A stretch of 33,871 nt of DNA. It comes from a virus. Taxonomy: Duplodnaviria; Heunggongvirae; Uroviricota; Caudoviricetes. Under the pieces are notes generated by a model. The model was not told where the DNA came from, searched no databases, and worked only from the letters and a program-made list of their open reading frames with translations. Positions 2,113 to 22,076 of this stretch are shown one piece after another. Both the position numbers and the translations under genes were made by a program. Location of the stretch: IMG/VR virus record IMGVR_UViG_2579778856_000005; one strand, given 5' to 3'. The stretch's first letter is position 1. The number at the start of each line of letters is the position of its first letter.

Positions 2113-2168
2113 TAAAAATACTCCCTTTTGAGTGGTTAAAGTACTGAGATAATGTGGGGAGGATTTGA

Positions 2169-2193
2169 GAGATAAACGTTGGTTTGGGGGAAG
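2169..2193 (+). other. Crossover site A (gix/cix-like) in front of cassette 1
   Basis: AGATAAACG-TT-GGTTTGGGGGAAGG. The half-site on the complementary strand (TTCCCCCAAACC) fits the invertase half-site consensus TTnTCnnAAACC, with a 2-bp core TT. Confidence 0.6.
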
Positions 2194-2612
2194 GCTCTGC
2201 ATTGCCTGTTGGTGTGCCTGTTCCATGGCCCACCGCCACACCGCCAGCAGGCTGGTTAAAGTGCGACGGGCGCGCCTTTACAAAAGAACAATATCCTGTT
2301 CTGGCCAGAGTCTACCCGACCCTCCGTCTTCCCGATTTACGCGGTGAGTTTATCCGTGGATGGGACGACGGGCGAAAAGTGGATACAGGGCGCGATCTGC
2401 TTTCACGGCAGGATGGTACAAGTTTTTCTCATTACGCAGGTAATTTTGACATTGGGTCTGGTCATTCAATCAATAACTATGACCAAATCGTTGACAACCA
2501 ACCTGGATTCTCCCGTTTTTCATTTGCAGGTCCTTCGCGAGGCGATGGGGTTAATTATGTGACCATTCGTCCCCGTAACATTGCGTTTAATTACATCGTA
2601 AGGGCGGCATAG
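2184..2612 (+). CDS. Silent tail-fibre C-terminal cassette 1 (promoterless, no ATG; collar-like conserved block plus variable tip)
   Basis: Open frame starting inside the crossover site. Encodes GEGSALPVGVPVPWPTATPPAGWLKCDGRAF...LPDLRGEFIRGWDDGRKVDTGR, then a unique ~58-aa tip, then the conserved end RPRNIAFNYIVRAA. Confidence 0.75.
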   Translation: MGEGSALPVGVPVPWPTATPPAGWLKCDGRAFTKEQYPVLARVYPTLRLPDLRGEFIRGWDDGRKVDTGRDLLSRQDGTSFSHYAGNFDIGSGHSINNYDQIVDNQPGFSRFSFAGPSRGDGVNYVTIRPRNIAFNYIVRAA

Positions 2613-2633
2613 AAACGTTGGTTTAGGAGAAGG
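2608..2633 (+). other. Crossover site B in front of cassette 2
   Basis: CATAGAAACG-TT-GGTTTAGGAGAAGG; same architecture as site A, with the conserved half abutting the repeated coding block. Confidence 0.6.
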
Positions 2634-2652
2634 CTCGGCGCTACCCGTTGGT

Positions 2653-3126
2653 GTGCCTGTTCCGTGGCCCACCGCCACACCGCCAGCAGGCTGGTTAAAG
2701 TGCGACGGGCGCGCCTTTACAAAAGAACAATATCCTGTTCTGGCCAGAGTCTACCCGACCCTCCGTCTTCCCGATTTGCGCGGTGAGTTTATCCGTGGAT
2801 GGGACGACGGGCGCAAAGTTGATACGGGGCGTTCATTGCTAAGTGGTCAGGCTGCAACATTTATTCGTACAGCTTTGCAGGATTATTACGGTTACGATCT
2901 GAATACTAATGTCAAAGTAGGTATCGCTTTTGCTACTGCTGATTCTGTTATAACCGTTGGAAACCCAGCTAATCCTAAAGCAGGAAATAATAGCGATTAT
3001 GTTCCTGCATCAGCAGATAACTCTATAACGGGTATTCAAAGGACAGCGGAGGATAATTTTACCGGGGCATGGATATCAATGCGCCCCCGCAATGTTGCGT
3101 TTAATTACATCGTAAGGGCCGCATAA
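2653..3126 (+). CDS. Silent tail-fibre C-terminal cassette 2
   Basis: The frame is open from just after the cassette-1 stop through the site (..RNVGLGEGSALPVGVPVPWP..). Same conserved block, unique AT-rich ~82-aa tip, same C-terminal RPRNVAFNYIVRAA. No ATG or RBS. Confidence 0.75.
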   Translation: MPVPWPTATPPAGWLKCDGRAFTKEQYPVLARVYPTLRLPDLRGEFIRGWDDGRKVDTGRSLLSGQAATFIRTALQDYYGYDLNTNVKVGIAFATADSVITVGNPANPKAGNNSDYVPASADNSITGIQRTAEDNFTGAWISMRPRNVAFNYIVRAA

Positions 3127-3147
3127 AAACGTTGGTTTAGGAGAAGG
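3122..3147 (+). other. Crossover site C in front of cassette 3
   Basis: CATAAAAACG-TT-GGTTTAGGAGAAGG. Confidence 0.6.
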
Positions 3148-3166
3148 CTCGGCGCTACCCGTTGGT

Positions 3167-3598
3167 GTGCCTGTTCCGTGGCCCACCGCCACACCGCCAG
3201 CAGGCTGGTTAAAGTGCGACGGGCGCGCCTTTACAAAAGAACAATATCCTGTTCTGGTCAGAGTCTACCCGACCCTCCGTCTTCCCGATTTGCGCGGTGA
3301 GTTTATCCGTGGATGGGACGGTGGTCGCAAGGTTGATACCGGGCGTGCGCTACTTTCATTTCAGGAAGGGACTATCGTATCCGGTTTTGATGATAATGAT
3401 ACCGGAGATATCAGTTCGCTCGGCTCTACACAATACGGATTTGGTGACGCTTTAACCTCTAATCAACTGGGGGTCTTAAATGGCAAAAAGTGGATATTTG
3501 ATGCATCCTCTAAAGGTGCACAAAGATATGACTGGTGGGCTTATGTATCAGCTCGCCCCCGCAATATCGCATTTAACTATATCGTGAGGGCGGCGTGA
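3167..3598 (+). CDS. Silent tail-fibre C-terminal cassette 3
   Basis: Same conserved block, unique ~70-aa tip, C-terminal RPRNIAFNYIVRAA. Confidence 0.75.
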   Translation: MPVPWPTATPPAGWLKCDGRAFTKEQYPVLVRVYPTLRLPDLRGEFIRGWDGGRKVDTGRALLSFQEGTIVSGFDDNDTGDISSLGSTQYGFGDALTSNQLGVLNGKKWIFDASSKGAQRYDWWAYVSARPRNIAFNYIVRAA

Positions 3599-4219: not shown

Positions 4220-5550
4220 TAAACTGCCCTCACAATGTAATTAAGTGCAATGCTACGGGGTCTGACAGTGATACCCTTCGCATACCCGCTTCTGATAGAG
4301 GTCAGAATAGTAGCCTGCATACCATTGTCTGACATTGCCACGACAGGATCGCTGAATGTTGTCCCGTCCGGCATTTTAAAGCTGCCCTCACGAAGGTCTG
4401 TAATGGAATCTTCATTGTTGAATCCCATGCCGACTATCCCCGAGGTTCCCGTAGTGTCCTGGTTATAATAATCCAGCATTGCTGTTCTTAACAGCGTTGC
4501 CCCTTGTGCGGACAGCAACTTACGTCCTGTATCAACTTTGCGCCCGTCGTCCCATCCACGGATAAACTCACCGCGTAAATCGGGAAGACGGAGGGTCGGG
4601 TAGACTCTGGCCAGAACAGGATATTGTTCTTTTGTAAAGGCGCGCCCGTCGCACTTTAACCAGCCTGCTGGCGGTGTGGCAGTGGGCCACGGAACAGGTA
4701 CACCAACGGGCAGCGCCGAGCCTTCCCCCAAACCAAGGTAATTGAGGACATCTTTTATACTGCCCTTAGCGATAATAGCGCGACCAATAGCTGTAAGGGT
4801 TGCCAGCTCTGCGCGGTCTGCTCCGGTAAAATAAGGCAACCGATCTGCTGCAGTGGCAAGTCCTGCCAGAGCAGTGAGCGTGGCATCTGCCGGTTGTTTT
4901 CCGTTTGCCAGATCGTATGCAGCCTTGACCGCTTTCGGTGTGGCGGCCAGTATTTCAGACGTGCTGTTGATGGCACTGCTCAATTGTACGGTGCCTTTTG
5001 CCGTCAGCGAGGCAGCAGGCACTCCCGTTATCTGACTCCACGGGTGAGTGTGGCTGACGGGCGCCTTGCCGGCTGCAAGGTCGTATGCAGCCTTGACCGC
5101 CTTCGGCGTGGCAGCCTCAGTTTCTGATTGACTGTCCGTGGCGCTGCTCAGTTGTACGGTGCCTTTTGCCGTCAGTGAAGCCGCAGGCACTCCCGTTATC
5201 TGACTCCACGGGTGAGTGTGGCTGGCAGGCGCCTTGCCGGCTGCCAGGTCGTATGCAGCCTTGACCGCTTTTGGTGTGGCGGCCAGCGTTTCAGAGGTGC
5301 TGTTGGTGGCACTGCTCAGTTGGGTGAACCCCTTAGCTGTCAGTGTCGCGTCCGGGTGGTTACGGGAACGTACGTGTTCAGCCAGTGACTGTGCGGCTTC
5401 CTCCGTTTTCTTCTTCAGCCATTTCGTCCTGTTTGCCAGTTGCCGGGGGGCTCGATTTGATATCCCGTCTGCACCACCCAGAACCGGATCTGATGTCTCC
5501 AGTTGATAGATATTTTCTTCCCACTTTTCTGTTTCATTCAGGTTTCCCAT
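4219..5550 (-). CDS. Tail fibre protein (currently expressed copy)
   Basis: 443 aa from the ATG at 5550 (GGGAG RBS). Shaft repeats (TAKGTVQLSSA..ETEAATPKAVKAAYDLA..SHTHPWSQITGVPA). The C-terminal third carries the same collar-like block as the three cassettes and ends RPRSIALNYIVRAV. Confidence 0.9.
   Translation of the reverse strand: MGNLNETEKWEENIYQLETSDPVLGGADGISNRAPRQLANRTKWLKKKTEEAAQSLAEHVRSRNHPDATLTAKGFTQLSSATNSTSETLAATPKAVKAAYDLAAGKAPASHTHPWSQITGVPAASLTAKGTVQLSSATDSQSETEAATPKAVKAAYDLAAGKAPVSHTHPWSQITGVPAASLTAKGTVQLSSAINSTSEILAATPKAVKAAYDLANGKQPADATLTALAGLATAADRLPYFTGADRAELATLTAIGRAIIAKGSIKDVLNYLGLGEGSALPVGVPVPWPTATPPAGWLKCDGRAFTKEQYPVLARVYPTLRLPDLRGEFIRGWDDGRKVDTGRKLLSAQGATLLRTAMLDYYNQDTTGTSGIVGMGFNNEDSITDLREGSFKMPDGTTFSDPVVAMSDNGMQATILTSIRSGYAKGITVRPRSIALNYIVRAV
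4716..4745 (-). other. Crossover site D inside the expressed fibre gene (inverted relative to A-C)
   Basis: Reverse complement reads AATTACC-TT-GGTTTGGGGGAAGG. The conserved half is identical to site A; the site spans codons N-Y-L-G-L-G-E-G at the constant/variable boundary. Confidence 0.6.
4880..5340. repeat. About 170-bp in-frame tandem repeats (three copies) in the tail-fibre shaft
   Basis: gtcgtatgcagccttgaccgc recurs at ~4920, ~5090 and ~5258; the protein motif TAKGTVQLSSA...AATPKAVKAAYDLAAGK..SHTHPWSQITGVPAASL is repeated. Confidence 0.6.
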
Positions 5551-9567: not shown

Positions 9568-10451
9568 CACACACTCCTCGTCAGTATTCTGGCGGCCATT
9601 GCACTTAATCCCGGAGACATGCGGTTGAATGCTGTTCCGACGGCGTTAAGCTGCCCGGAAACGGTATCCAGAGCACCTGCAATATTTCTTTTGTCCACAC
9701 CACTCAGCGCAGACTGTGCCTGCTGTACATACGTGGCTGCTTCGCTGGCTGTTCTGGCCAGACTGATGGCATCGGGCATGGATTCAGAGAGTGCGTTAAA
9801 CGCCGGAACACTTTTCCCCAGAGCCCCGGAGATATTACCCAGTCCGCTCATCAGCCCCGGCACACGGGTCAGTGCGACAACGGGGTTATCCTTCATTTTC
9901 TGTGTCACCCGAACGGCGCTGATAGTGGTCTGGAGTACAGACTGCGCCTGTTTCGCATAGTTGACGCCGTTGCGGATGAACTGCGCCACCCCTGAAGGTG
10001 AAGGTATGGCACCGGAGACCGCCCCGACACCCGGGAGCTTCGTGCGTATTGCCGGTGGTTGCAGAGGATTTTTCGGGTCACCGGTGTATTCCCGGAGAGA
10101 CACGGTGGCACTGACAGCCAGCACGTTGCCGGTACTGTCAGTCTGCTCGCTGGTTGCAGTCACATCGGTGATCACGAACCAGCCGCGATAGTCACCGTTG
10201 CCGAAGACCAGCGCCAGTGCCTGATGGGCTTTCATGGCTGTTCGCAGTCTCGCCAGCTCCACATCGGGTACACAATAATGCTGATGGAAAACCAGAGTTA
10301 TCTGGATTTCGTCCAGCCTGTCGCCGACGAACTGCAGACCAGGCTTACCCCCGATGCGGGCATGCTCCGCATAATCGACGCCGAACGTGGCCTCGAAGCC
10401 GTCCCAGTAGGTAATCAGCTCAAACTCAATATCACCCAGTACGGCAAACAT
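9567..10451 (-). CDS. Tail protein with P2 gpU-like N-terminal domain and a long Ala/Ser-rich C-terminal extension
   Basis: 294 aa; the N-terminal ~125 aa (GKPGLQFVG..ITL..ALALVFGNGDYRGWFVITDVTATSEQ) resembles the gpU tail-terminator family. Intact only in this copy. Confidence 0.7.
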   Translation of the reverse strand: MFAVLGDIEFELITYWDGFEATFGVDYAEHARIGGKPGLQFVGDRLDEIQITLVFHQHYCVPDVELARLRTAMKAHQALALVFGNGDYRGWFVITDVTATSEQTDSTGNVLAVSATVSLREYTGDPKNPLQPPAIRTKLPGVGAVSGAIPSPSGVAQFIRNGVNYAKQAQSVLQTTISAVRVTQKMKDNPVVALTRVPGLMSGLGNISGALGKSVPAFNALSESMPDAISLARTASEAATYVQQAQSALSGVDKRNIAGALDTVSGQLNAVGTAFNRMSPGLSAMAARILTRSV

Positions 10452-13402
10452 CAGCGGTACTCCTTACGTTGTTTCTGAGCCAGCAGACGCTCCAGCATTT
10501 TTTCCAGCTCATGCAGACTCATATTCAGGGCACCAGTCAGTCCTGCAGGCGCTGTGGTTTCCCTGCCATTGAGGAAAAACTGAGGATTAAAGCTGACCTG
10601 GATACCACCAGACGTTCCACCGCCGGTTGCAGCTGCACCACGGCCTGAATATCCGGCAGCCAGGATTTCAGGCGAGGGGATACGGGGAACATCCGGTGTC
10701 ATCTCATTTGCCAGACGTTGCCCTGGTAAAATCGATGCCCGGGTGGAGAGCGGAATAGCGGGCATGGAAGACAAACTATTGATTACGGCTCCGATCGCAT
10801 TTTTAGCAGACGACATAAACCCATTGATATCGGGCAACGGCATACTGAAGCGAACACCTGAAGTGTTATCCCGTATTTCTGGCCCCTGAATGCTCACGGG
10901 CATTCTGGGGAGCAGTTCACTGGCCATTCGCTGCCCGGCCAGAGCTGCAAGCGGAGTGGTCCGCTGCAGGCCAATGGCGGCCCCCTGCGCGATATTGTCA
11001 CCAAAGCCCATAAACACGCGGCTCGGCGAATGAATGCCCAGCTTTTCGCTGAACCAGCCACTGATGCTGTCACCCATTCCGGTTACACTGGATTTGAGCG
11101 ACTCCCATTTGTTTTTGATACCGTTAATCAGACCGTCGACAAGATGGCCACCGAAGTCGGTGAACTTTGCCGGCAGATCAACACCAAGATATTTCAGCGC
11201 AGCTGCAAAGGCTTTATAGAGCAGACCTGCCGGCGACCAGTTAATCAGCAGCTTACCAGTTCCCGCGATACCGCCGTTAAAGGCTTCCTGAATGTCAGCC
11301 CAGCACTGTTTAAACCAGCTACTGATGCTGTCACCCATTCCGGTTACACTGGATTTGAGCGACCCCCATTTGTTTTTGATACCGTTAATCAGACCGTCGA
11401 TAAGATGGCCACCGAAGTCGGTGAACTTTGCCGGCAGAGCAACGCCGAAATATTTCAGCGCAGCCGCAAAGGCTTTATAGAGCAGGCCTGCCGGCGACCA
11501 GTTAATCAGCAACTTACCAATTCCCACAATGCCGCCGTTAAAGGCTTCCTGAATGTCAGCCCAGCGCTGTTTAAACCAACCACTGACAGCCCCCCAGTTG
11601 CGGTAGATAAGGTAAGCTGCTGTCGCGACAGCGGTGATAACGAGACCGATGGGATTCATCATCAGCGCTCGCCCAATCCAGAGAACGGCACGTGCAGCGC
11701 TCATAAAACCGCGAACGAGGCTGCCCGCCAGAACTTTGCTGAGTTTCAGTCCTCCGCTGGTCAGTCGGCTGAATCCAGTGACAAGCCAGCGTAATTTGCC
11801 ACCTTCTCCGAGTGCGGTAGTCAGTCGATGCCAGTTGGTCCGGAGTAAAACAGTAGTTTTCCAGACGTTCACAAAGGGGGAAATAAGGAGATTCAGCCCC
11901 AGTTTGAGACCAATAGTCGCTATCTTAATCGCAAGGAGCGCACTGATGAGCTTAAAAGCCCCACTGACAAATTGCGGGTGAGTCGCTACCCAGTGTTTTG
12001 TCCCCTGAATGAGTGGGAGCAGTTCCTGAGTCAGAGAAATAAAAGATGGAGCTAATTGATCGCCCAGCGTAATTGCCAGATCGCGACTGCTGACCATAAG
12101 TGTTTTAGTGGCTTCAAGGGGAGATTTCAGCCGCTGATCATAAGCACTGGCAAGCAAATCGTTATCCGCAGCCCTGAGAGCACCGGCACGGATCTCTCGA
12201 TATCTGTCCATGTTGGCCAGCATCGGGCGGATAAATGCCATGACCTGCATATCCGCGAACATATCGCCCAGACCAAAGTTTTTCGCCAGAGCCTGAAGTG
12301 CCTCATCTCTTGCCGTATCATTCTTTATTTTCATGGCTGATTTGAAGCCGGCCAGCGCTTCGGGGCTTTTGGCATTGAGGTAACGTTCTATAACACTCAA
12401 CATCCCTTCAATCGGAGAGATCCCCGCAGCTTTATAACTCGCAATAGATCCCTGCAAATCAATACCCAGATCAGCAAACTGTTTCTGAGTATCGCGGGCA
12501 AAAATTTTGGTAAGAAAGTTTTTAAAATTATTGGCTGCTTCGTCGGTGGAACCTGCACCGATTTTTGCTATCTGGAGACTGGCCCCGATTTCAGCAACAG
12601 CCTCTTTTCCACTGGCAATACCCGCCATCATTGGGGCCAGGGACTGCATCCACTTGACCTGATCCGGGATTTCAAATGACCCCTGGTCACCGGCATAAGC
12701 CATAATATTCTGAACGGCACCAAAATCTCTGGCCGCGCCTTTCAGGGAGTTTTGCCAGACTGCGGCCACTTTTGCCCAGTCCTGAGCAGACGTGCGTGTT
12801 GCCGTTGCCGCGCGGGCAATATCCGGCATCAGAAAACCGATATCTGACACATTATCAATATTGTCGCTGATGAGTGAACCCACCGCCTCCTGCAGCTCAT
12901 CCTGATACTGATTGTATTTAAGCGCCCAGCCTTTTATCTGTCCGGCAAGTGCATCCCGCGTTTTATTGTCATATTTTGCGGTGATCGACATATCAATCAT
13001 TTTGTCCTGAAAAGACATGGACTGCTGAACGGCAGGGGAAACCGTATGATAAACAGTCTGTGCCATGCCATACGCTTCAATCCCCTGACCATACAGCGCC
13101 ATGCGGTTAGCTTTCAGCGCATCACTGGTAGCGGATGCCGCTGACAGACGGCGCTGCTGGCGCTCAATTTGCTCCATGGTGCGGCTTACCCGCAGCAGCT
13201 CGCTGTTGAGATGCTGCATCCGGGAAGAACCCAGTTGACCATAACGTTCTGTTGCACGGGTTAAAGCGTTCTGACGTTCCTGCAGGCGGCGTGAGGTATC
13301 GCTCAGGGAATCAAGCGCACGGCGGGTACCGCTCATTGCAGAACGGAATGTGCTGCCAATCATCCCGCCGATAACAACGCCGACTGAAAACTGTCCCGAC
13401 AT
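10451..13402 (-). CDS. Tail tape measure protein (copy 1)
   Basis: 983 aa, N-terminal coiled coil, internal 86-aa tandem repeat, GGAGG RBS. Confidence 0.9.
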   Translation of the reverse strand: MSGQFSVGVVIGGMIGSTFRSAMSGTRRALDSLSDTSRRLQERQNALTRATERYGQLGSSRMQHLNSELLRVSRTMEQIERQQRRLSAASATSDALKANRMALYGQGIEAYGMAQTVYHTVSPAVQQSMSFQDKMIDMSITAKYDNKTRDALAGQIKGWALKYNQYQDELQEAVGSLISDNIDNVSDIGFLMPDIARAATATRTSAQDWAKVAAVWQNSLKGAARDFGAVQNIMAYAGDQGSFEIPDQVKWMQSLAPMMAGIASGKEAVAEIGASLQIAKIGAGSTDEAANNFKNFLTKIFARDTQKQFADLGIDLQGSIASYKAAGISPIEGMLSVIERYLNAKSPEALAGFKSAMKIKNDTARDEALQALAKNFGLGDMFADMQVMAFIRPMLANMDRYREIRAGALRAADNDLLASAYDQRLKSPLEATKTLMVSSRDLAITLGDQLAPSFISLTQELLPLIQGTKHWVATHPQFVSGAFKLISALLAIKIATIGLKLGLNLLISPFVNVWKTTVLLRTNWHRLTTALGEGGKLRWLVTGFSRLTSGGLKLSKVLAGSLVRGFMSAARAVLWIGRALMMNPIGLVITAVATAAYLIYRNWGAVSGWFKQRWADIQEAFNGGIVGIGKLLINWSPAGLLYKAFAAALKYFGVALPAKFTDFGGHLIDGLINGIKNKWGSLKSSVTGMGDSISSWFKQCWADIQEAFNGGIAGTGKLLINWSPAGLLYKAFAAALKYLGVDLPAKFTDFGGHLVDGLINGIKNKWESLKSSVTGMGDSISGWFSEKLGIHSPSRVFMGFGDNIAQGAAIGLQRTTPLAALAGQRMASELLPRMPVSIQGPEIRDNTSGVRFSMPLPDINGFMSSAKNAIGAVINSLSSMPAIPLSTRASILPGQRLANEMTPDVPRIPSPEILAAGYSGRGAAATGGGTSGGIQVSFNPQFFLNGRETTAPAGLTGALNMSLHELEKMLERLLAQKQRKEYR
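11040..11585. repeat. 258-bp in-frame tandem repeat inside the tape measure gene (two full copies plus a partial third)
   Basis: ccagc(c/t)actgatgctgtcacccattccggttacactggatttgagcga recurs at 11055 and 11313; the protein repeat is WFKQ(R/C)WADIQEAFNGG...SVTGMGDSIS. Confidence 0.8.
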
Positions 13403-13477
13403 AGTGGTTAACCTCCGGGGAAGGTGAAAAGACGTGAGGGGATAACGCAGAACAGCCGCTACTGGCGGCTGTCTGTA

Positions 13478-13895
13478 CTATGATTTGTCGCCGTACTCGC
13501 TTTTGATTTGCTCTTCAGCCTGCTCCAGCCACATCTCCAGATCGTCAGTATCGAGGGCATCAATCTCCCCCGGCTGAAACCGGAACCATCTCGCCAGCAG
13601 CCCCTGCGCCTGCGTCAGCGCCCTGGTTGCTCTCACCCATCCCCGTGATGAGCTGAAATCGTTTCTGTAACTGCAGGTAATCAGCCAGATCCATATTGTC
13701 GAGATCTTCCGGGAGAAGACCAGTACTGCGGGCAATCAGCGGTTCGTCCCAGTCTGCCGGGTTTTTGCTGATTTTGCGCACCTGCTTCAGGTCTTTTACC
13801 GTCAGGCGTTTCAGTTCAACCAGCTCAATTCTGGTGCCTGCAGCAGTGGTGAAGGGATAAGACAATTTAAAAGTATCGGATGGGGTCTGTGACAT
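13478..13895 (-). CDS. Tail assembly chaperone, putative frameshifted long form (GT / E+E' analogue)
   Basis: A second ORF (13478-13735) overlaps the 3' end of the chaperone ORF in the +1 (equivalently -2) frame and extends it by ~28 aa of plausible protein sequence (..IDALDTDDLEMWLEQAEEQIKSEYGDKS). Confidence 0.5.
13560..13895 (-). CDS. Tail assembly chaperone (lambda G / P2 E analogue), short form
   Basis: 111 aa, acidic, between tube and tape measure; AGGAG RBS. Confidence 0.8.
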   Translation of the reverse strand: MSQTPSDTFKLSYPFTTAAGTRIELVELKRLTVKDLKQVRKISKNPADWDEPLIARSTGLLPEDLDNMDLADYLQLQKRFQLITGMGESNQGADAGAGAAGEMVPVSAGGD

Positions 13896-13949
13896 GATTG
13901 TGCTCCTGTGTAAGTTCAGGGCAGTATGTCGGGAGAAGCGCGTGACGGA

Positions 13950-13990
13950 TATTAAAGGAGATTAAGAAGAAGGGGCCGGAGCCCCTGTGA
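13950..13990 (-). terminator. Putative intrinsic terminator/attenuator between tube region and chaperone
   Basis: Perfect palindrome AGGGGC-CGGA-GCCCCT (13971-13986) followed on the minus-strand transcript by a T-rich run (ttcttcttaatctccttt). Confidence 0.5.
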
Positions 13991-13992
13991 TG

Positions 13993-14274
13993 TCAGCAAG
14001 TGCGAAACCCCTTGCAGTTACGCAGGAAAGCGATGAGAAGCGTCTTTCCCTCAGATTTGCCGATGCCGGAGAACCAGTGGTCGGGAGGCTCCCATGCTTC
14101 AATCAAATCCGCCAGTTTGCGGGCCTTTGAACGTGTGCAGTCAATCGGGTCATTGGTTTTACGGGTATTAAAAAGGGTTTCCACCCCCGGAATATCAAGG
14201 AGGGTAAACCACGTACCATTTGACATGCCCAGTGCCGCACATCGTCCTCCTTTATCCGTCAGTTCAACACTCAC
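13993..14274 (-). CDS. Hypothetical small protein between tube and chaperone
   Basis: 93-codon open frame in a 380-bp gap; start codon ambiguous (GTG at 14274, or an internal ATG with a distant AAGGAGGA). Confidence 0.35.
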   Translation of the reverse strand: MSVELTDKGGRCAALGMSNGTWFTLLDIPGVETLFNTRKTNDPIDCTRSKARKLADLIEAWEPPDHWFSGIGKSEGKTLLIAFLRNCKGFRTC

Positions 14275-14276
14275 CG

Positions 14277-14798
14277 TCAGCCCCCGATATTGATACGGTA
14301 GTCAGTCAGTTGATCAACACCGCCGACCCGGAAGATGTTGGCCAGATAGTCCAGTTGCAGCAGCTCTTCACCATCCAGTACCTGTCTGATATACGTGCAG
14401 GTGAAGCTACTGGAGAACTCGGCGTTCTCGTGCTGTTTGAACGTCCCCAGCGGGTTCTTCTTGAACATAATCGTCAGGAAGGTGACCAGCGGGATTTCGT
14501 CAATCAGCCCCTGCGAGCTGTAGCGCTGGACGCTGGAACGACACTGCAGTGCCAGCGACCTGTACGGGTTCGCGGCAGACAGCATCGCATCGCGGTAAAA
14601 GCTGTTCCATTTGATTTCGCCTTCCAGCTTGTCAAAACCAGCCGGGAGTTCCACCTTACCCACCATCCCCAGCGCCTTGTGTTCCTGCATAATCATGGAG
14701 ACATCGGGGAGTTTAACTTCCTCAGCCCGTCCCAGCAGGTTAGTACCATCCAGATAGATGTTGGCATTCGTGATGCGGTTTATCTCAATCTTTGACAT
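14277..14798 (-). CDS. Tail tube protein (copy 1)
   Basis: 173 aa, ATGA overlap with the sheath stop; contractile-tail tube family by size and position. Confidence 0.9.
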   Translation of the reverse strand: MSKIEINRITNANIYLDGTNLLGRAEEVKLPDVSMIMQEHKALGMVGKVELPAGFDKLEGEIKWNSFYRDAMLSAANPYRSLALQCRSSVQRYSSQGLIDEIPLVTFLTIMFKKNPLGTFKQHENAEFSSSFTCTYIRQVLDGEELLQLDYLANIFRVGGVDQLTDYRINIGG

Positions 14799-16089
14799 CA
14801 GTTGCCCCCTTTCAGGGTTAACAGGTATTCCGAGGTGATCTCAGTCTCAAACGTCAGTCGCTCCAGCGGCGGTGGTGGCGTATATTTGTAGCTCAGCAAC
14901 AGGTGCCCGGCGGCCAGCTCCGTCTCCGGATTGCGGGCCGGATCAAACCAGCAACGGAAGCCCAGTACCGCACCATCACCAGTCATTTTGCGACCGTAGG
15001 CGTTGACCGACTCCGTCAGTGCATCAATCAGCGCCTGAGTAATCGGCATGTCGATGTACTGCTGGCTGAAATAACGAATGGACTCGTTGATCACATCACC
15101 GGTGCGGCGAACGTTCTCAAAGTTACGCATATGGGTGACCGTTGGCCATGCTGCCGTCCGGTTACCCCACAGACGAAGGCCGCTGCCGTAACTGCTGAAT
15201 ACCGTGGTGATCCCCTGTTCGTTAAGCAGGTTCACCTCACTCTGCGGGTCATCAATCATCGCGGACAGCTGGCGCTCCACGCCGGTGATCCCCAGAATCT
15301 CCTGATTGGAGGATGACCACCAGTAGCCCTTGTCCAGATCGACTCTGGCACGCAGACCTGCTGCACGCTGGCTGAGCGGCTCCAGACGCTCTGTGTTTGT
15401 CACCGGGTCATATACCTTCACATGCGGATAGCACAGACGGACGCGGTCGGAGCTGGTATTGAAGTTGATGGTGCCTTCCGGGCCACGACCTGCCAGAGCC
15501 TGTGCAAAGGTGGTACCGACAGGCGCATCAATGTAGGTTACCGCGCCCAGCTTCTCTGCCATGGCGATAAGCTCAACTGCGACACTCTTCTGGGTGCAGA
15601 ACACCGGCGCAATCAGAATTTTGGCGAAATAGCCGTACAGGTTGAAGCTGTCGTTAAGCAGCTTCATGCCGGTTCGGTTTCCGGCGCTGTTCACCCCGCC
15701 GATGATGTCCGCCGCAGTCACCTTCGACGGGTCCGCGTACTCATAGCTCACCTTCACGCTGCCACCGGCCTCAATAGCCTTGCCCAGGTTCGTGAGCACA
15801 CCCGCCTGCGCATCAACACGGTAGTCCGTGTTCGCCGTGTGGGTGGTGCTGCCTTCACTGTTTTTCACCACCACATTAGCGACAACCGGATGCGCCAGTC
15901 TGGCCTGCCCTGTCGATTTGTCAAAGGTAACCACCTCATCCTCGATCGCCGTTTTATGTTTCGCCGGGTCGAGGACGTTAATGACCAGAACGGTGCCTGC
16001 ACCATGGTCATAAATCGCATCCAGCGCCTGCGGAATGGTAAAGCCGGTGAACTGGCTGCCAAATGCCGCTGCGTCTTTCTCAGACAGGC
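14798..16089 (-). pseudogene. Tail sheath protein, 5'-truncated fragment (lacks ~45 N-terminal codons)
   Basis: Matches the intact sheath at 20649-22076 up to the duplication junction at 16089, then reads into out-of-frame U-derived sequence. Confidence 0.8.
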
Positions 16090-16302
16090 TGTTCGCAGTC
16101 TCGCCAGCTCCACATCGGGTACACAATAATGCTGATGGAAAACCAGAGTTATCTGGATTTCGTCCAGCCTGTCGCCGACGAACTGCAGACCAGGCTTACC
16201 CCCGATGCGGGCATGCTCCGCATAATCGACGCCGAACGTGGCCTCGAAGCCGTCCCAGTAGGTAATCAGCTCAAACTCAATATCACCCAGTACGGCAAAC
16301 AT
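16090..16302 (-). pseudogene. gpU-like tail protein, 3'-truncated fragment (first 71 codons)
   Basis: Identical to the N-terminus of the 9567-10451 protein (MFAVLGDIEFELITYWDGFEATFGVDYAEHARIGGKPGLQFVG...) then fused out of frame to sheath antisense sequence. Confidence 0.8.
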
Positions 16303-19253
16303 CAGCGGTACTCCTTACGTTGTTTCTGAGCCAGCAGACGCTCCAGCATTTTTTCCAGCTCATGCAGACTCATATTCAGGGCACCAGTCAGTCCTGCAGG
16401 CGCTGTGGTTTCCCTGCCATTGAGGAAAAACTGAGGATTAAAGCTGACCTGGATACCACCAGACGTTCCACCGCCGGTTGCAGCTGCACCACGGCCTGAA
16501 TATCCGGCAGCCAGGATTTCAGGCGAGGGGATACGGGGAACATCCGGTGTCATCTCATTTGCCAGACGTTGCCCTGGTAAAATCGATGCCCGGGTGGAGA
16601 GCGGAATAACGGGCATGGAAGACAAACTATTGATTACGGCTCCGATCGCATTTTTAGCAGACGACATAAACCCATTGATATCGGGCAACGGCATACTGAA
16701 GCGAACACCTGAAGTGTTATCCCGTATTTCTGGCCCCTGAATGCTCACGGGCATTCTGGGGAGCAGTTCACTGGCCATTCGCTGCCCGGCCAGAGCTGCA
16801 AGCGGAGTGGTCCGCTGCAGGCCAATGGCGGCCCCCTGCGCGATATTGTCACCAAAGCCCATAAACACGCGGCTCGGCGAATGAATGCCCAGCTTTTCGC
16901 TGAACCAGCCACTGATGCTGTCGCCCATTCCGGTTACACTGGATTTGAGCGACTCCCATTTGTTTTTGATACCGTTAATCAGACCATCGACAAGATGGCC
17001 ACCGAAGTCGGTAAACTTTGCCGGCAGATCAACACCAAGATATTTCAGCGCAGCTGCAAAGGCTTTATAGAGCAGACCTGCCGGCGACCAGTTAATCAGC
17101 AGCTTACCAGTTCCCGCGATACCGCCGTTAAAGGCTTCCTGAATGTCAGCCCAGCATTGTTTAAACCAGCTACTGATGCTGTCACCCATTCCGGTTACAC
17201 TGGATTTGAGCGACCCCCATTTGTTTTTGATACCGTTAATCAAACCGTCGATAAGATGGCCACCGAAGTCGGTGAACTTTGCCGGCAGAGTAACGCCGAA
17301 ATATTTCAGCGCAGCCGCAAAGGCTTTATAGAGCAGGCCTGCCGGCGACCAGTTAATCAGCAGCTTACCAGTTCCCGCGATACCGCCGTTAAAGGCTTCC
17401 TGAATGTCAGCCCAGCGCTGTTTAAACCAGCCACTGACTGCCCCCCAGTTGCGGTAGATAAGGTAAGCTGCTGCCGCGACAGCGGTGATAACGAGACCGA
17501 TGGGATTCATCATCAGCGCTCGCCCAATCCAGAGAACGGCACGTGCAGCGCTCATAAAACCGCGAACGAGGCTGCCCGCCAGAACTTTGCTGAGTTTCAG
17601 TCCTCCGCTGGTCAGTCGGCTGAATCCAGTGACAAGCCAGCGTAATTTGCCACCTTCTCCGAGTGCGGTAGTCAGTCGATGCCAGTTGGTCCGGAGTAAA
17701 ACAGCAGTTTTCCAGACGTTCACAAAGGGGGAAATAAGGAGATTCAGCCCCAGTTTGAGACCAACAGTCGCTATCTTAATCGCAAGGAGCGCACTGATGA
17801 GCTTAAAAGCCCCACTGACAAATTGCGGGTGAGTCGCCACCCAGTGTTTTGTCCCCTGAATGAGTGGGAGCAAGTCCTGAGTCAGAGAAATAAAAGATGG
17901 AGCTAATTGATCGCCCAGCGTAATTGCCAGATCGCGACTGCTGACCATAAGTGTTTTAGTGGCTTCAAGGGGAGATTTCAGCCGCTGATCATAAGCACTG
18001 GCAAGCAAATCGTTATCCGCAGCCCTGAGAGCACCGGCACGGATCTCTCGATATCTGTCCATGTTGGCCAGCATCGGGCGGATAAATGCCATGACCTGCA
18101 TATCCGCGAACATATCGCCCAGACCAAAGTTTTTCGCCAGAGCCTGAAGTGCCTCATCTCTTGCCGTATCATTCTTTATTTTCATGGCTGATTTGAAGCC
18201 GGCCAGCGCTTCGGGGCTTTTGGCATTGAGGTAACGTTCTATAACACTCAACATCCCTTCAATCGGAGAGATCCCCGCAGCTTTATAACTCGCAATAGAT
18301 CCCTGCAAATCAATACCCAGATCAGCAAACTGTTTCTGAGTATCGCGGGCAAAAATTTTGGTAAGAAAGTTTTTAAAATTATTGGCTGCTTCGTCGGTGG
18401 AACCTGCACCGATTTTTGCTATCTGGAGACTGGCCCCGATTTCAGCAACAGCCTCTTTTCCACTGGCAAGACCCGCCATCATTGGGGCCAGGGACTGCAT
18501 CCACTTGACCTGATCCGGGATTTCAAATGACCCCTGGTCACCGGCATAAGCCATAATATTCTGAACGGCACCAAAATCTCTGGCCGCACCTTTCAGGGAG
18601 TTTTGCCAGACTGCGGCCACTTTTGCCCAGTCCTGAGCAGACGTGCGTGTTGCCGTTGCCGCGCGGGCAATATCCGGCATCAGAAAACCGATATCTGACA
18701 CATTATCAATATTGTCGCTGATGAGTGAACCCATCGCCTCCTGCAGCTCATCCTGATACTGATTGTATTTAAGCGCCCAGCCTTTTATCTGTCCGGCAAG
18801 TGCATCCCGCGTTTTATTGTCATATTTTGCGGTGATCGACATATCAATCATTTTGTCCTGAAAAGACATGGACTGCTGAACGGCAGGGGAAACCGTATGA
18901 TAAACAGTCTGTGCCATGCCATACGCTTCAATCCCCTGACCATACAGCGCCATGCGGTTAGCTTTCAGCGCATCACTGGTAGCGGATGCCGCTGACAGAC
19001 GGCGCTGCTGGCGCTCAATTTGCTCCATGGTGCGGCTTACCCGCAGCAGCTCGCTGTTGAGATGCTGCATCCGGGAAGAACCCAGTTGACCATAACGTTC
19101 TGTTGCACGGGTTAAAGCGTTCTGACGTTCCTGCAGGCGGCGTGAGGTATCGCTCAGGGAATCAAGCGCACGGCGGGTACCGCTCATTGCAGAACGGAAT
19201 GTGCTGCCAATCATCCCGCCGATAACAACGCCGACTGAAAACTGTCCCGACAT
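16302..19253 (-). CDS. Tail tape measure protein (copy 2)
   Basis: 983 aa; about 9 amino-acid differences from copy 1. Confidence 0.9.
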   Translation of the reverse strand: MSGQFSVGVVIGGMIGSTFRSAMSGTRRALDSLSDTSRRLQERQNALTRATERYGQLGSSRMQHLNSELLRVSRTMEQIERQQRRLSAASATSDALKANRMALYGQGIEAYGMAQTVYHTVSPAVQQSMSFQDKMIDMSITAKYDNKTRDALAGQIKGWALKYNQYQDELQEAMGSLISDNIDNVSDIGFLMPDIARAATATRTSAQDWAKVAAVWQNSLKGAARDFGAVQNIMAYAGDQGSFEIPDQVKWMQSLAPMMAGLASGKEAVAEIGASLQIAKIGAGSTDEAANNFKNFLTKIFARDTQKQFADLGIDLQGSIASYKAAGISPIEGMLSVIERYLNAKSPEALAGFKSAMKIKNDTARDEALQALAKNFGLGDMFADMQVMAFIRPMLANMDRYREIRAGALRAADNDLLASAYDQRLKSPLEATKTLMVSSRDLAITLGDQLAPSFISLTQDLLPLIQGTKHWVATHPQFVSGAFKLISALLAIKIATVGLKLGLNLLISPFVNVWKTAVLLRTNWHRLTTALGEGGKLRWLVTGFSRLTSGGLKLSKVLAGSLVRGFMSAARAVLWIGRALMMNPIGLVITAVAAAAYLIYRNWGAVSGWFKQRWADIQEAFNGGIAGTGKLLINWSPAGLLYKAFAAALKYFGVTLPAKFTDFGGHLIDGLINGIKNKWGSLKSSVTGMGDSISSWFKQCWADIQEAFNGGIAGTGKLLINWSPAGLLYKAFAAALKYLGVDLPAKFTDFGGHLVDGLINGIKNKWESLKSSVTGMGDSISGWFSEKLGIHSPSRVFMGFGDNIAQGAAIGLQRTTPLAALAGQRMASELLPRMPVSIQGPEIRDNTSGVRFSMPLPDINGFMSSAKNAIGAVINSLSSMPVIPLSTRASILPGQRLANEMTPDVPRIPSPEILAAGYSGRGAAATGGGTSGGIQVSFNPQFFLNGRETTAPAGLTGALNMSLHELEKMLERLLAQKQRKEYR
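16891..17436. repeat. 258-bp tandem repeat inside tape measure gene, copy 2
   Basis: Same repeat as 11040-11585, offset by 5,851 bp. Confidence 0.8.
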
Positions 19254-19410
19254 AGTGGTTAACCTCCGGGGAAGGTGAAAAGACGTGAGGGGATAACGCA
19301 GAACAGCCGCTACTGGCGGCTGTCTGTACTATGATTTGTCGCCGTACTCGCTTTTGATTTGCTCTTCAGCCTGCTCCAGCCACATCTCCAGATCGTCAGT
19401 ATCGAGGGCA

Positions 19411-19746
19411 TCAATCTCCCCCGGCTGAAACCGGAACCATCTCGCCAGCAGCCCCTGCGCCTGCGTCAGCGCCCTGGTTGCTCTCACCCATCCCCGTGAT
19501 GAGCTGAAATCGTTTCTGTAACTGCAGGTAATCAGCCAGATCCATATTGTCGAGATCCTCCGGGAGAAGACCAGTACTGCGGGCAATCAGCGGTTCGTCC
19601 CAGTCTGCCGGGTTTTTGCTGATTTTGCGCACCTGCTTCAGGTCTTTTACCGTCAGGCGTTTCAGTTCAACCAGCTCAATTCTGGTGCCTGCAGCAGTGG
19701 TGAAGGGATAAGACAATTTAAAAGTATCGGATGGGGTCTGTGACAT
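19411..19746 (-). CDS. Tail assembly chaperone (copy 2)
   Basis: Identical to 13560-13895; overlapping +1-frame ORF at 19329-19586. Confidence 0.8.
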   Translation of the reverse strand: MSQTPSDTFKLSYPFTTAAGTRIELVELKRLTVKDLKQVRKISKNPADWDEPLIARSTGLLPEDLDNMDLADYLQLQKRFQLITGMGESNQGADAGAGAAGEMVPVSAGGD

Positions 19747-19843
19747 GATTGTGCTCCTGTGTAAGTTCAGGGCAGTATGTCGGGAGAAGCGCGTGACGGA
19801 TATTAAAGGAGATTAAGAAGAAGGGGCCGGAGCCCCTGTGATG

Positions 19844-20125
19844 TCAGCAAGTGCGAAACCCCTTGCAGTTACGCAGGAAAGCGATGAGAAGCGTCTTTCC
19901 CTCAGATTTGCCGATGCCGGAGAACCAGTGGTCGGGAGGCTCCCATGCTTCAATCAAATCCGCCAGTTTGCGGGCCTTTGAACGTGTGCAGTCAATCGGG
20001 TCATTGGTTTTACGGGTATTAAAAAGGGTTTCCACCCCCGGAATATCAAGGAGGGTAAACCACGTACCATTTGACATGCCCAGTGCCGCACATCGTCCTC
20101 CTTTATCCGTCAGTTCAACACTCAC
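19844..20125 (-). CDS. Hypothetical small protein (copy 2)
   Basis: Duplicate of 13993-14274. Confidence 0.35.
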   Translation of the reverse strand: MSVELTDKGGRCAALGMSNGTWFTLLDIPGVETLFNTRKTNDPIDCTRSKARKLADLIEAWEPPDHWFSGIGKSEGKTLLIAFLRNCKGFRTC

Positions 20126-20127
20126 CG

Positions 20128-20649
20128 TCAGCCCCCGATATTGATACGGTAGTCAGTCAGTTGATCAACACCGCCGACCCGGAAGATGTTGGCCAGATAG
20201 TCCAGTTGCAGCAGCTCTTCACCATCCAGTACCTGTCTGATATACGTGCAGGTGAAGCTACTGGAGAACTCGGCGTTCTCGTGCTGTTTGAACGTCCCCA
20301 GCGGGTTCTTCTTGAACATAATCGTCAGGAAGGTGACCAGCGGGATTTCGTCAATCAGCCCCTGCGAGCTGTAGCGCTGGACGCTGGAACGACACTGCAG
20401 TGCCAGCGACCTGTACGGGTTCGCGGCAGACAGCATCGCATCGCGGTAAAAGCTGTTCCATTTGATTTCGCCTTCCAGTTTGTCAAAACCAGCCGGGAGT
20501 TCCACCTTACCCACCATCCCCAGCGCCTTGTGTTCCTGCATAATCATGGAGACATCGGGGAGTTTGACTTCCTCAGCCCGTCCCAGCAGGTTAGTACCAT
20601 CCAGATAGATGTTGGCATTCGTGATGCGGTTTATCTCAATCTTTGACAT
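20128..20649 (-). CDS. Tail tube protein (copy 2)
   Basis: Protein identical to copy 1. Confidence 0.9.
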   Translation of the reverse strand: MSKIEINRITNANIYLDGTNLLGRAEEVKLPDVSMIMQEHKALGMVGKVELPAGFDKLEGEIKWNSFYRDAMLSAANPYRSLALQCRSSVQRYSSQGLIDEIPLVTFLTIMFKKNPLGTFKQHENAEFSSSFTCTYIRQVLDGEELLQLDYLANIFRVGGVDQLTDYRINIGG

Positions 20650-22076
20650 CAGTTGCCCCCTTTCAGGGTTAACAGGTATTCCGAGGTGATCTCAGTCTCA
20701 AACGTCAGTCGCTCCAGCGGCGGTGGTGGCGTATATTTGTAGCTCAGCAACAGGTGCCCGGCGGCCAGCTCCGTCTCCGGATTGCGGGCCGGATCAAACC
20801 AGCAACGGAAGCCCAGTACCGCACCATCACCAGTCATTTTGCGACCGTAGGCGTTGACCGACTCCGTCAGTGCATCAATCAGCGCCTGAGTAATCGGCAT
20901 GTCGATGTACTGCTGGCTGAAATAACGAATGGACTCGTTGATCACATCACCGGTGCGGCGAACGTTCTCAAAGTTACGCATATGGGTGACCGTTGGCCAT
21001 GCTGCCGTCCGGTTACCCCACAGACGAAGGCCGCTGCCGTAACTGCTGAATACCGTGGTGATCCCCTGTTCGTTAAGCAGGTTCACCTCACTCTGCGGGT
21101 CATCAATCATCGCGGACAGCTGGCGCTCCACGCCGGTGATCCCCAGAATCTCCTGATTGGAGGATGACCACCAGTAGCCCTTGTCCAGATCGACTCTGGC
21201 ACGCAGACCTGCTGCACGCTGGCTGAGCGGCTCCAGACGCTCTGTGTTTGTCACCGGGTCATATACCTTCACATGCGGATAGCACAGACGGACGCGGTCG
21301 GAGCTGGTATTGAAGTTGATGGTGCCTTCCGGGCCACGACCTGCCAGAGCCTGTGCAAAGGTGGTACCGACAGGCGCATCAATGTAGGTTACCGCGCCCA
21401 GCTTCTCTGCCATGGCGATAAGCTCAACTGCGACACTCTTCTGGGTGCAGAACACCGGCGCAATCAGAATTTTGGCGAAATAGCCGTACAGGTTGAAGCT
21501 GTCGTTAAGCAGCTTCATGCCGGTTCGGTTTCCGGCGCTGTTCCCCCCGCCGATGATGTCCGCCGCAGTCACCTTCGACGGGTCCGCGTACTCATAGCTC
21601 ACCTTCACGCTGCCACCGGCCTCAATAGCCTTGCCCAGGTTCGTGAGCACACCCGCCTGCGCATCAACACGGTAGTCCGTGTTCGCCGTGTGGGTGGTGC
21701 TGCCTTCACTGTTTTTCACCACCACATTAGCGACAACCGGATGCGCCAGTCTGGCCTGCCCTGTCGATTTGTCAAAGGTAACCACCTCATCCTCGATCGC
21801 CGTTTTATGTTTCGCCGGGTCGAGGACGTTAATGACCAGAACGGTGCCTGCACCATGGTCATAAATCGCATCCAGCGCCTGCGGAATGGTAAAGCCGGTG
21901 AACTGGCTGCCAAATGCCGCTGCGTCTTTCTCAGACAGGCACTGTACCAGCGTATTGACATCCCCCATCGGGGCGGTACCAATCAGGCCAATAACGGCAG
22001 ATTTCACCGTTTTAACCGGGCGGGCACCGTTTTCCACCTCAATGGTTTCGGGACCATGCAGATAGTTAGCTGCCAT
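20649..22076 (-). CDS. Tail sheath protein (intact copy)
   Basis: 475 aa, MAANYLHGPETIEVENGARPVKTVKSAVIGLIGTAP..; contractile sheath family. Confidence 0.9.
   Translation of the reverse strand: MAANYLHGPETIEVENGARPVKTVKSAVIGLIGTAPMGDVNTLVQCLSEKDAAAFGSQFTGFTIPQALDAIYDHGAGTVLVINVLDPAKHKTAIEDEVVTFDKSTGQARLAHPVVANVVVKNSEGSTTHTANTDYRVDAQAGVLTNLGKAIEAGGSVKVSYEYADPSKVTAADIIGGGNSAGNRTGMKLLNDSFNLYGYFAKILIAPVFCTQKSVAVELIAMAEKLGAVTYIDAPVGTTFAQALAGRGPEGTINFNTSSDRVRLCYPHVKVYDPVTNTERLEPLSQRAAGLRARVDLDKGYWWSSSNQEILGITGVERQLSAMIDDPQSEVNLLNEQGITTVFSSYGSGLRLWGNRTAAWPTVTHMRNFENVRRTGDVINESIRYFSQQYIDMPITQALIDALTESVNAYGRKMTGDGAVLGFRCWFDPARNPETELAAGHLLLSYKYTPPPPLERLTFETEITSEYLLTLKGGN

Follow-up and report, generated by a model that had tools for sequence, protein, structure and literature searches.

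The window considered here is a stretch of 33,871 nucleotides from a tailed virus (Duplodnaviria; Heunggongvirae; Uroviricota; Caudoviricetes; IMG/VR record IMGVR_UViG_2579778856_000005), and the subject of this report is a pair of overlapping reading frames in its tail gene cluster. The prophage is an Escherichia coli one of the BcepMu-like kind, with a Mu-type head and a P2-type tail, and the locus holds its tail-assembly chaperone pair; the genes concerned all lie on the minus strand. Escherichia phage PhiKM, assigned to Bcepmuvirus, shares 99.9% identity with the region. Frameshifting in tail chaperone genes is a textbook form of recoding, and almost all of the cases that have been mapped are shifts of -1.

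The member of the pair that is read in the zero frame is the chaperone gene. Its product matches the Pfam domain Phage_TAC_7 (PF10109) over residues 8-81 with 74.8 bits, against a cut-off of 25, and can thus be counted as carrying that domain; it also matches phrog_166, described as 'tail protein' (E 2.8e-32), and bears the PGAP name 'phage tail assembly protein'. In the zero frame the gene ends with GCC GGG GGA GAT TGA, which contains a run of five G residues (13571..13567 on the minus strand; the G5 run below). A second open reading frame (ORF) lies over the 3′ end of the gene. The codons of the chaperone start at positions p for which p mod 3 = 2 and those of the second ORF at positions for which p mod 3 = 1, and therefore the second ORF is displaced by one nucleotide in the 3′ direction and occupies the +1/-2 frame. 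Both the coordinates and the frames agree with an earlier description of this DNA that was made from the letters alone (the sequence-only reading). The G/GT-type arrangement recognized in that description is likewise present, as a chaperone pair of the P2 E/E′ type, on the strength of the PF10109 match (E 5.5e-21) and of homology to E′. The -1 frame is also open, extending 101 nucleotides beyond the chaperone stop, so that ORF length and geometry alone cannot pick the partner frame.

The partner frame is instead identified by conservation and homology. The Pfam profile of E′ (PF06528, Phage_P2_GpE) aligns with the +1-frame peptide of the window over profile positions 4-36 of 37 at 15.8 bits, which is below its cut-off of 23, and the score rises from there through a Salmonella relative (20 bits) and a Pasteurella phage (52 bits) to P2 itself (79 bits). 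When a profile of six +1-frame peptides was compared by hhalign with the E′ sequences of P2 and the Pasteurella phage, a match with 95.5% probability (E 1.5e-8) was obtained, and by this profile-profile match the overlapping out-of-frame ORF contains a GpE domain. The peptide also matches phrog_8286 (E 2.7e-34), and a sequence search of the PDB found no relative.

Selection on the second frame was assessed in an alignment of 67 unique relatives drawn from 9 genomes and 79 viral contigs, of which 64 were kept after three truncated or frame-disturbed rows had been dropped. The twelve +1-frame codons just 5′ of the G5 run (QGLLARWFRFQP; Q G L L A R W F R F Q P) have no nonsynonymous variant among these 64 sequences and abundant synonymous ones, with Gly written as GGG, GGC, GGT or GGA, Leu as CTG, CTC, CTA or TTG, and Arg as CGG, AGA, CGC or AGG. 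Over the same bases the zero frame is variable (A, P, T, S, V and others) and reads TAG in 34 of the 64. More distant lineages were then added, namely a Salmonella prophage (51% identity), Ralstonia phage YO107_2, Pseudomonas phage Komp_PAO1_1, BcepMu and their IMG/VR relatives, the wider loci being gathered by four single-protein scans. By a motif search, 148 loci were seen to have E′ in the +1 frame, and these reduce to 113 unique sequences from E. coli-, Salmonella-, Ralstonia-, Pseudomonas- and BcepMu-like lineages; of the 15 loci that fell outside the search pattern, most proved on inspection to be of the +1 type too. The -1 arrangement occurs in P2, in Pasteurella phage AFS-2018a and in loci L144 and L145. 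Judged by this conservation and homology, the +1-frame ORF is the real partner of the chaperone, homologous to E′ of P2 and under strong purifying selection. The emphasis that the sequence-only reading laid on a frame other than -1 stands as regards the frame itself, the +1 offset being kept in all 113 unique related loci, but its novelty was overstated: a -2 shift is annotated in Mu, and shifts of -1, -2 and +1 are recorded among tailed phages in the review by Atkins (2016; PMC5009743).

Where the frame is changed can be bracketed from both sides. The slip site suggested by the sequence-only reading was the G-run CCGGGGGAG at about 13563-13575, an interval within which the G5 run does fall. 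A zero-frame stop (GTT TAG) precedes that run by seven codons in the 34 close relatives with TAG, the run is broken in Mixta tenebrionis (CCTGTGGAG) and in Brenneria (CCGAGTGAG), and purifying selection on the +1 frame is already evident at least 12 codons upstream of it. The suggestion was ruled out on these three counts, and because of the early stops, the loss of the run and the upstream +1 segment with its synonymous-only variation, it is very probable from comparative data that some shift into the +1 frame takes place upstream of the G-run. On the 5′ side, the E′ frame opens just three codons upstream of a TTT_C in 17 unique loci (Ralstonia- and Pseudomonas-like), while the zero frame stops eight codons past the TTT in L155 and L159 and ten past it in L034 and L035. 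Provided that the whole family uses a homologous site, these frame openings and stops would confine the shift to about 11 codons.

Exactly one in-frame TTT_C is found in this permitted interval in each of the 113 unique +1-type loci. In the window its TTT is the codon of Phe-80, about 28 codons upstream of the G-run. The following codon takes seven forms (CAG in 68 loci, CAA in 15, CGC in 11, CGG in 9, CTG in 8, CAT in 1 and CGT in 1) that encode four amino acids (Q, H, R and L), and its first base is always C. The F80 codon is TTT in 103 of 103 sequences. It is one of 16 well-conserved degenerate columns in the gene, and each of the other 15 shows synonymous variation, its commonest codon taking a share of 0.43 to 0.86. 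TTT is retained even in lineages of 57-63% G+C, where it makes up some 27-39% of Phe codons by a rough estimate that includes spurious open stretches, and the chance of meeting TTT plus C across the lineages comes to about 1e-4, again a rough value based on crude codon-usage figures. A scan of all +1-compatible (XXX_N) and -2-compatible patterns found no other motif common to all six lineage groups, and relatives with a -1 frame (the Pasteurella phage, L144 and L145) have no TTT_C. Where the second frame begins to be used there is thus a UUU in frame with a C after it, and these nucleotides are conserved beyond what the protein needs. The codon before TTT is CGA in 91 of the 113 loci, with no synonymous variation, which suggests that in the main clade the context extends to CGA_UUU_C.

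The best explanation of these comparisons, and one in which moderate confidence is placed, is a conserved +1 shift at CGA_UUU_C that would give rise to an E+E′ product of 138 residues. Most ribosomes would make the 111-residue chaperone and a minority would shift by +1. With UUU (13658..13656) in the ribosomal P site, tRNA-Phe (anticodon GAA) would re-pair with the overlapping and fully cognate UUC (13657..13655), and the ribosome would continue at AGC... in the +1 frame. The fused product would comprise M1-F80 followed by 58 residues of the +1 frame (SSSRGWVRATRALTQAQGLLARWFRFQPGEIDALDTDDLEMWLEQAEEQIKSEYGDKS), with ...LQKRF/SSSRGW... at the junction. A -2 shift at UUU_C does not appear plausible, because no pairing is available two bases upstream. 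By analogy with lambda G/GT and with P2, binding of the tape measure would fall to the N-terminal domain common to both products and recruitment of tube subunits to E′, and a low efficiency of shifting would set the ratio of the two chaperone forms. UUU-pyrimidine sites are reportedly prone to +1 shifts in E. coli, in work ascribed to Schwartz and Curran in 1997. The ribosomal nature of the shift, its direction (+1 rather than -2), its efficiency and the roles of the two products are what we infer from the material presented here.

Several observations weigh against this placing of the shift. F80 is itself a conserved residue of the chaperone domain, and only the choice of codon and the C that follows are specific to a site; the sequences are phylogenetically related, and the counts given above overstate their independence. 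Conservation is poor in the +1-frame linker (SSSRGWVRATRA) that joins the site to the E′ core, which would be compatible with a shift a few codons further downstream. The codon in the ribosomal A site varies (CAG, CAA, CGN, CTG) and is neither rare nor a stop, so that the slow codon of some +1 sites is lacking. Stimulatory elements are not apparent either: no conserved Shine-Dalgarno-like element is evident at the site, no conserved RNA structure was found 3′ of it (the alifold consensus of 8 lineages has -0.84 kcal/mol and no convincing covariation; the window sequence alone folds with z = -2.9), and a search of Rfam gave no hit. Since no stimulator is evident, the efficiency of the shift may be low. 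Finally, the G-run is one G shorter, and the two frames are fused at that point, in the database proteins P0004, P0006, P0007 and P0009 and in loci L013 and L095; if such alleles are real and functional, a fusion that lacks LLARWFRFQP can work.

That last point would suit a shift on the G5 run itself, where tRNA-Gly would slip either by -2 from GGA to GGG, in the manner of Mu, or by +1 from GGG to GGG, to give a product ...VSAG(G)EIDALD... whose junction would read ...EMVPVSAGGEIDALDTDDLEMWLEQAEEQIK after a -2 shift and ...VSAGEIDAL... after a +1 shift. The register GCC GGG GGA permits perfect re-pairing, the verified -2 site of Mu is also a G5 run (CGG GGG CGA), and alleles or errors one G shorter, in which the frames are fused at this place, recur in databases. 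A shift on the run is nonetheless highly improbable: besides the early stops and broken runs already described, the run is absent from the inspected Salmonella-, Pseudomonas- and BcepMu-like sequences, and the extension would have only about 29 residues, against 57 in P2 and 51 in Mu. Half of the E′ domain would be omitted, including LLARWFRFQP, a segment that matches the N-terminal half of PF06528 and in which the conservation of E′ is strongest. The window locus does not therefore qualify as a Mu-type site, that is, a G5 run with -2 re-pairing of tRNA-Gly. A site elsewhere between codon 81 and the E′ core, perhaps different in different lineages, is unlikely rather than highly improbable, examples being a +1 shift on GGG_G at 13604..13601 or a non-canonical one near the conserved GAY codon at 13616..13614. 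Strict conservation of the +1 frame begins only at about L278/Q284 (reference coordinates), GGG_G is present in 55 of the 64 E. coli-like sequences, and a similarly placed G-run occurs in some Ralstonia-like phages. GGG_G forms part of a 17-nucleotide block that is invariant in 11 sequences, but in 9 of the 64 the motif becomes GGGC, GGGT or GGGA, and it is missing from the wider Salmonella-, Pseudomonas- and BcepMu-like lineages. It also lies downstream both of the invariant Leu of E′ and of the zero-frame stops in L034, L035, L155 and L159, and any site further downstream leaves the invariance of TTT_C unexplained. Among the -2 re-pairing sites considered, such as GGC/GCA and AG/AGC, none is universal.

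Two further explanations dispense with a ribosomal shift. E′ could be made from an internal start of its own in the +1 frame, as the PGAP name 'GpE family phage tail protein' implies; PGAP calls separate genes of 45 and 52 residues, PHROGs holds a family of such ORFs (phrog_8286), and an ATG stands two codons before QAQG in 35 of the 64 E. coli-like sequences. Relatives in which the downstream ORF has its own start, a possibility that the sequence-only reading had raised, therefore do exist, but the start is not conserved: the equivalent codon is ACG or CTG in the window lineage (at least 99% identity, 576 genomes) and ATT in Brenneria, and the GTG start chosen by PGAP is GCA, GTA or CTG elsewhere. 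On direct reading of the sequence no good Shine-Dalgarno precedes it, and in P2 and the analogous lambda G/GT the second-frame segment works only as a fusion (PMC5009743). Independent initiation is on this evidence very unlikely. The long form could also originate at the level of nucleic acid, by transcriptional slippage or by variation in the length of a G/C homopolymer in the DNA, for which the shorter G-run or 1-nucleotide deletions in other short homopolymers in several assemblies could be cited. Some of these variants lie in error-prone or degraded sequence (the frame of L095 is broken at several points, and L013 comes from a contig polished with Pilon), and the conservation of TTT_C would again be left without explanation. 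Runs of 3-5 nucleotides are far below known transcriptional slippage sites in length, and an origin of this kind is scarcely credible.

The fused-frame sequences themselves are of some interest. Single-base deletions that fuse the frames are present in L013 (Erwinia tracheiphila), L090 and L095 and in six database proteins (P0004, P0006, P0007, P0009, P0023 and P0060), and affect the G5 run, a GGG or an A5 run; P0023 and P0060 have their 1-nucleotide deletions in short homopolymers other than the G5 run. Such deletions may be sequencing errors, decayed prophages or always-fused alleles, and some of the shorter-run variants recur in several assemblies and could be real alleles, probably defective ones. 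Database proteins that are 138 residues long and in frame were considered as evidence for the site and set aside, as they arise by 1-nucleotide deletions in short homopolymers at three places and are uninformative on a ribosomal site. The zero-frame chaperone, for its part, ends early in four loci, at codon 91 in L034 and L035 and at codon 85 in L155 and L159, in each case before the Gly/Ala-rich tail and with E′ intact, and the base change that creates the stop in L034 and L035 is synonymous in the +1 frame. Because these early stops coexist with an intact E′, they suggest that the C-terminal tail of the chaperone is dispensable.

The chaperone is flanked by the tail tube and tape-measure genes in the same order as in PhiKM, with one extra small gene (13993-14274) between; the coordinates of these and of the other features are collected in the table. 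Two hairpins are present in the intergenic stretches. The first, at 13971-13986 on the minus strand, is G+C-rich with a T-rich tail, resembles a terminator and lies between the phrog_1239 gene and the chaperone; the second (CAGCCGCC...GGCGGCTG), at about 13446-13470 on the same strand, lies between the E′ stop and the start of the tape-measure gene and is conserved among relatives. Both might modulate transcription of the tail operon or stability of its mRNA.

Features of the tail chaperone locus, its neighbours and its second copy (positions in the window)
Feature	Position	Strand	Basis
Tail assembly chaperone gene (gpE-like), copy 1, zero frame, 111 residues, ATG to TGA	13895..13560	-	Pfam PF10109 Phage_TAC_7, E 5.5e-21
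Overlapping second ORF, +1 frame, over the 3′ end of the chaperone gene	13735..13478	-	ORF calls
Proposed +1 shift site CGA_UUU_C (CGA 13661..13659; Phe-80 TTT 13658..13656; C 13655)	13655..13661	-	Comparative conservation
Putative +1-frame extension (E′), 58 codons plus TAG, after the proposed shift	13478..13654	-	Translation; phrog_8286
Conserved E′ core (LLARWFRFQPGEIDALDTDDLEMWLEQAEEQIK)	13499..13597	-	PF06528 positions 4-36 of 37; hhalign; synonymous-only +1 variation
G5 run, earlier proposed slip site, rejected as a conserved site	13567..13571	-	Comparative evidence
Tail tube gene (FII-like), 5′ of the chaperone gene	14277..14798	-	PF04985, E 2.9e-53
Gene of unknown function, 93 residues, between the tube and chaperone genes	13993..14274	-	phrog_1239
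Tape-measure gene, 983 residues, directly 3′	10451..13402	-	PF10145, E 2e-20; PhiKM annotation
Sheath gene, full length in the second copy only	20649-22076	-	Gene order
Chaperone gene, copy 2	19411..19746	-	One synonymous difference from copy 1
Copy 2 of the proposed shift site, CGA_UUU_C	19512..19506	-	Sequence identity to copy 1
Copy 2 of the putative +1-frame E′ extension	19505..19329	-	Sequence identity to copy 1
Tandem duplication, two units of about 5.85 kb	10245..21932	.	Yields the second chaperone locus

A second copy of the arrangement at 19329-19746, also pointed out by the sequence-only reading, is present and differs by one synonymous base. It is the product of a tandem duplication whose units (10245-16081 and 16096-21932) are 5,851 bp apart; of the 27 mismatches between them most fall within the tape-measure gene (11072-12883). 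The duplication takes in the genes for tape measure, chaperone, phrog_1239 and tube, together with a portion of the sheath gene. The junction was contiguous in none of the 640 complete E. coli genomes that bear the prophage, and the duplication is therefore probably either an assembly artefact, arising by mis-assembly of two variants, or a private rearrangement, and stands outside the mechanism proposed here. Other repeats were seen in the window. The tape-measure gene contains 261-nucleotide tandem repeats at 11052-11586 (and at 16903-17437) with 94-95% identity between neighbours, and the PhiKM record has a sequencing gap within the same repeat-rich gene; these repeats may cause assembly problems or variation in tail length. 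The tail-fibre region (2126-3346 and 4898-5401) holds two repeat families, one of copies of about 268 nucleotides with 82-95% identity and the other a tandem array of 168 nucleotides, and the former lies close to an ORF (1540-2241) that is a possible counterpart of a recombinase annotated in a related phage record. The tail-fibre repeats may represent alternative fibre tips in an invertible segment. Positions 1-1284 match a part of a related phage record that is labelled 3-phosphoshikimate 1-carboxyvinyltransferase (aroA), and host sequence flanking the prophage thus seems to be present at the left end of the window.

The prophage region was found in 637 of 5,426 complete E. coli genomes (about 12%), and 576 of the 637 carry it at an identity of at least 99%. 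PGAP annotates in these genomes the 'phage tail assembly protein' alone; for a degraded copy and for a relative of 86% identity it adds a separate +1-frame ORF under the name 'GpE family phage tail protein', and neither PGAP nor PHROGs joins E′ to the chaperone. Confirmation of the site would thus correct the annotation of a prophage in about 12% of complete E. coli genomes, where the long product is missing or split and a split E′ is currently filed in E. coli prophages as a 'GpE family' ORF or one of 'unknown function'. Literature searches, in which subscription journals were largely uncovered, so that a prior description is possible, returned no account of a UUU_C +1 site for a P2-type E/E′ pair in BcepMu-like phages. 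A different activity is attached to the same domain family in Burkholderia gladioli, in which Bg_9562, a Phage_TAC_7 protein described as 'prophage tail-like', is reported to be a secreted antifungal effector (PMC5581363, PMC8944631).

The closest known counterpart is the gpE/gpE+E′ pair of P2, which belongs to the same family, PF10109 (47.8 bits for P2 E, 74.8 for the window protein), and has a homologous E′ (PF06528; hhalign 95.5%). The order of tube, chaperone and tape-measure genes is also the same, the window having in addition the phrog_1239 gene between tube and chaperone. The verified -1 site of P2, GGT TTT TTG, lies about three Pfam profile positions from F80, and both places mark the C-terminal limit of the chaperone domain; when the chaperone profile was compared by hhalign with single P2 and Mu sequences the match was weak (E about 0.05), and it serves for the placement of residues only, with family membership taken from Pfam. 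The extension has 57 residues in P2 and 58 in the window, and in both the invariant Leu of E′ follows the shift at a distance of 13 residues. The two differ in direction, as P2 shifts by -1 on the heptamer T_TTT_TTG, whereas in the window and in the 113 unique relatives E′ is in the +1 frame, no heptamer of the form X_XXY_YYZ leads into that frame and the candidate is a bare UUU_C. Were UUU_C to be confirmed, P2 and the BcepMu-like phages would provide a homologous -1/+1 pair in which the evolution of frameshift direction can be studied.

Mu, which like the window phage is a transposable phage of the Mu type, has a tail chaperone (gp41/Mu_56) 5′ of the tape measure with an extension in the +1/-2 frame and a verified -2 shift that is annotated in GenBank and credited to Xu, Hendrix and Duda (2004). 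Both loci contain a G5 run, which in Mu is the shift site. Mu gp41 matches mainly PF23746 (119.5 bits) and scores 24.7 bits with PF10109, just under the cut-off, while the window protein matches PF10109 only; the Mu extension has 51 residues and no PF06528 match, and the -2 shift of Mu on GGG_GGC contrasts with the proposed +1 shift on UUU_C. By these profile scores the window chaperone is closer to P2 E than to Mu gp41. A chaperone shift other than -1 is already known from the -2 case of Mu, and the proposed UUU_C +1 site would be an unannotated variant; should UUU_C prove wrong, the locus would be one more chaperone with a partner in a frame other than -1, as in Mu. In lambda the shift is -1, on G_GGA_AAG. 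The logic of gpG/gpGT is the same as that of the window pair, with two forms that share an N-terminus and a fixed ratio obtained by a low-efficiency frameshift 5′ of the tape measure (PMC5009743), although there is no sequence similarity and the tail of lambda is non-contractile. The XXX and XXXX motifs are treated as +1 sites in the chaperones of SEA-PHAGES by PRFect.

Within the genus, Burkholderia phage BcepMu, the type species of Bcepmuvirus, has a PF10109 protein (gp41, 57.4 bits) and an E′ homologue in the +1 frame (gp42), with an in-frame TTT_C at the equivalent Phe and a linker from the site to the E′ core that is about 20 residues longer than that of the window. The GenBank record of this phage (L016, AY539836, 6603-7364) describes gp42/gp43 as a lambda G/T-like pair with a -1 slip. 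That assignment appears to be to the wrong pair of genes, because gp41 is the chaperone and gp42 the +1-frame E′ by homology and TCC TTT CGC is present, and the reference record could be corrected if UUU_C were confirmed.

The nearest known parallel to the proposed site itself is eukaryotic. The +1 site of influenza PA-X is given as UCC_UUU_CGU (Firth 2012, cited in PMC5009743), a motif from which TCC TTT CGC of BcepMu differs in the last base only. PA-X shares with the window the proposed slip of tRNA-Phe from UUU to UUC, the lack of an obvious stimulatory structure and a low expected efficiency; it differs in that the slow A-site codon CGU is thought to be important there, whereas the A-site codon of the window family is variable and not rare in E. 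coli, and the two are evolutionarily unrelated. Confirmation would make UUU_C a bacterial +1 site, kept by natural selection, that operates with no help from a stop codon, a rare codon or a Shine-Dalgarno stimulator. In its widest form the proposal, for which the chances seem evenly balanced, is that a conserved and unannotated programmed +1 shift on a bare UUU_C, with no stop, rare codon or RNA structure, is common to the BcepMu-like phages of Enterobacterales, Burkholderia, Ralstonia and Pseudomonas as a bacterial counterpart of PA-X, and that the chaperone family has switched the direction of its shift while keeping a U-rich Phe codon as the place of slippage.

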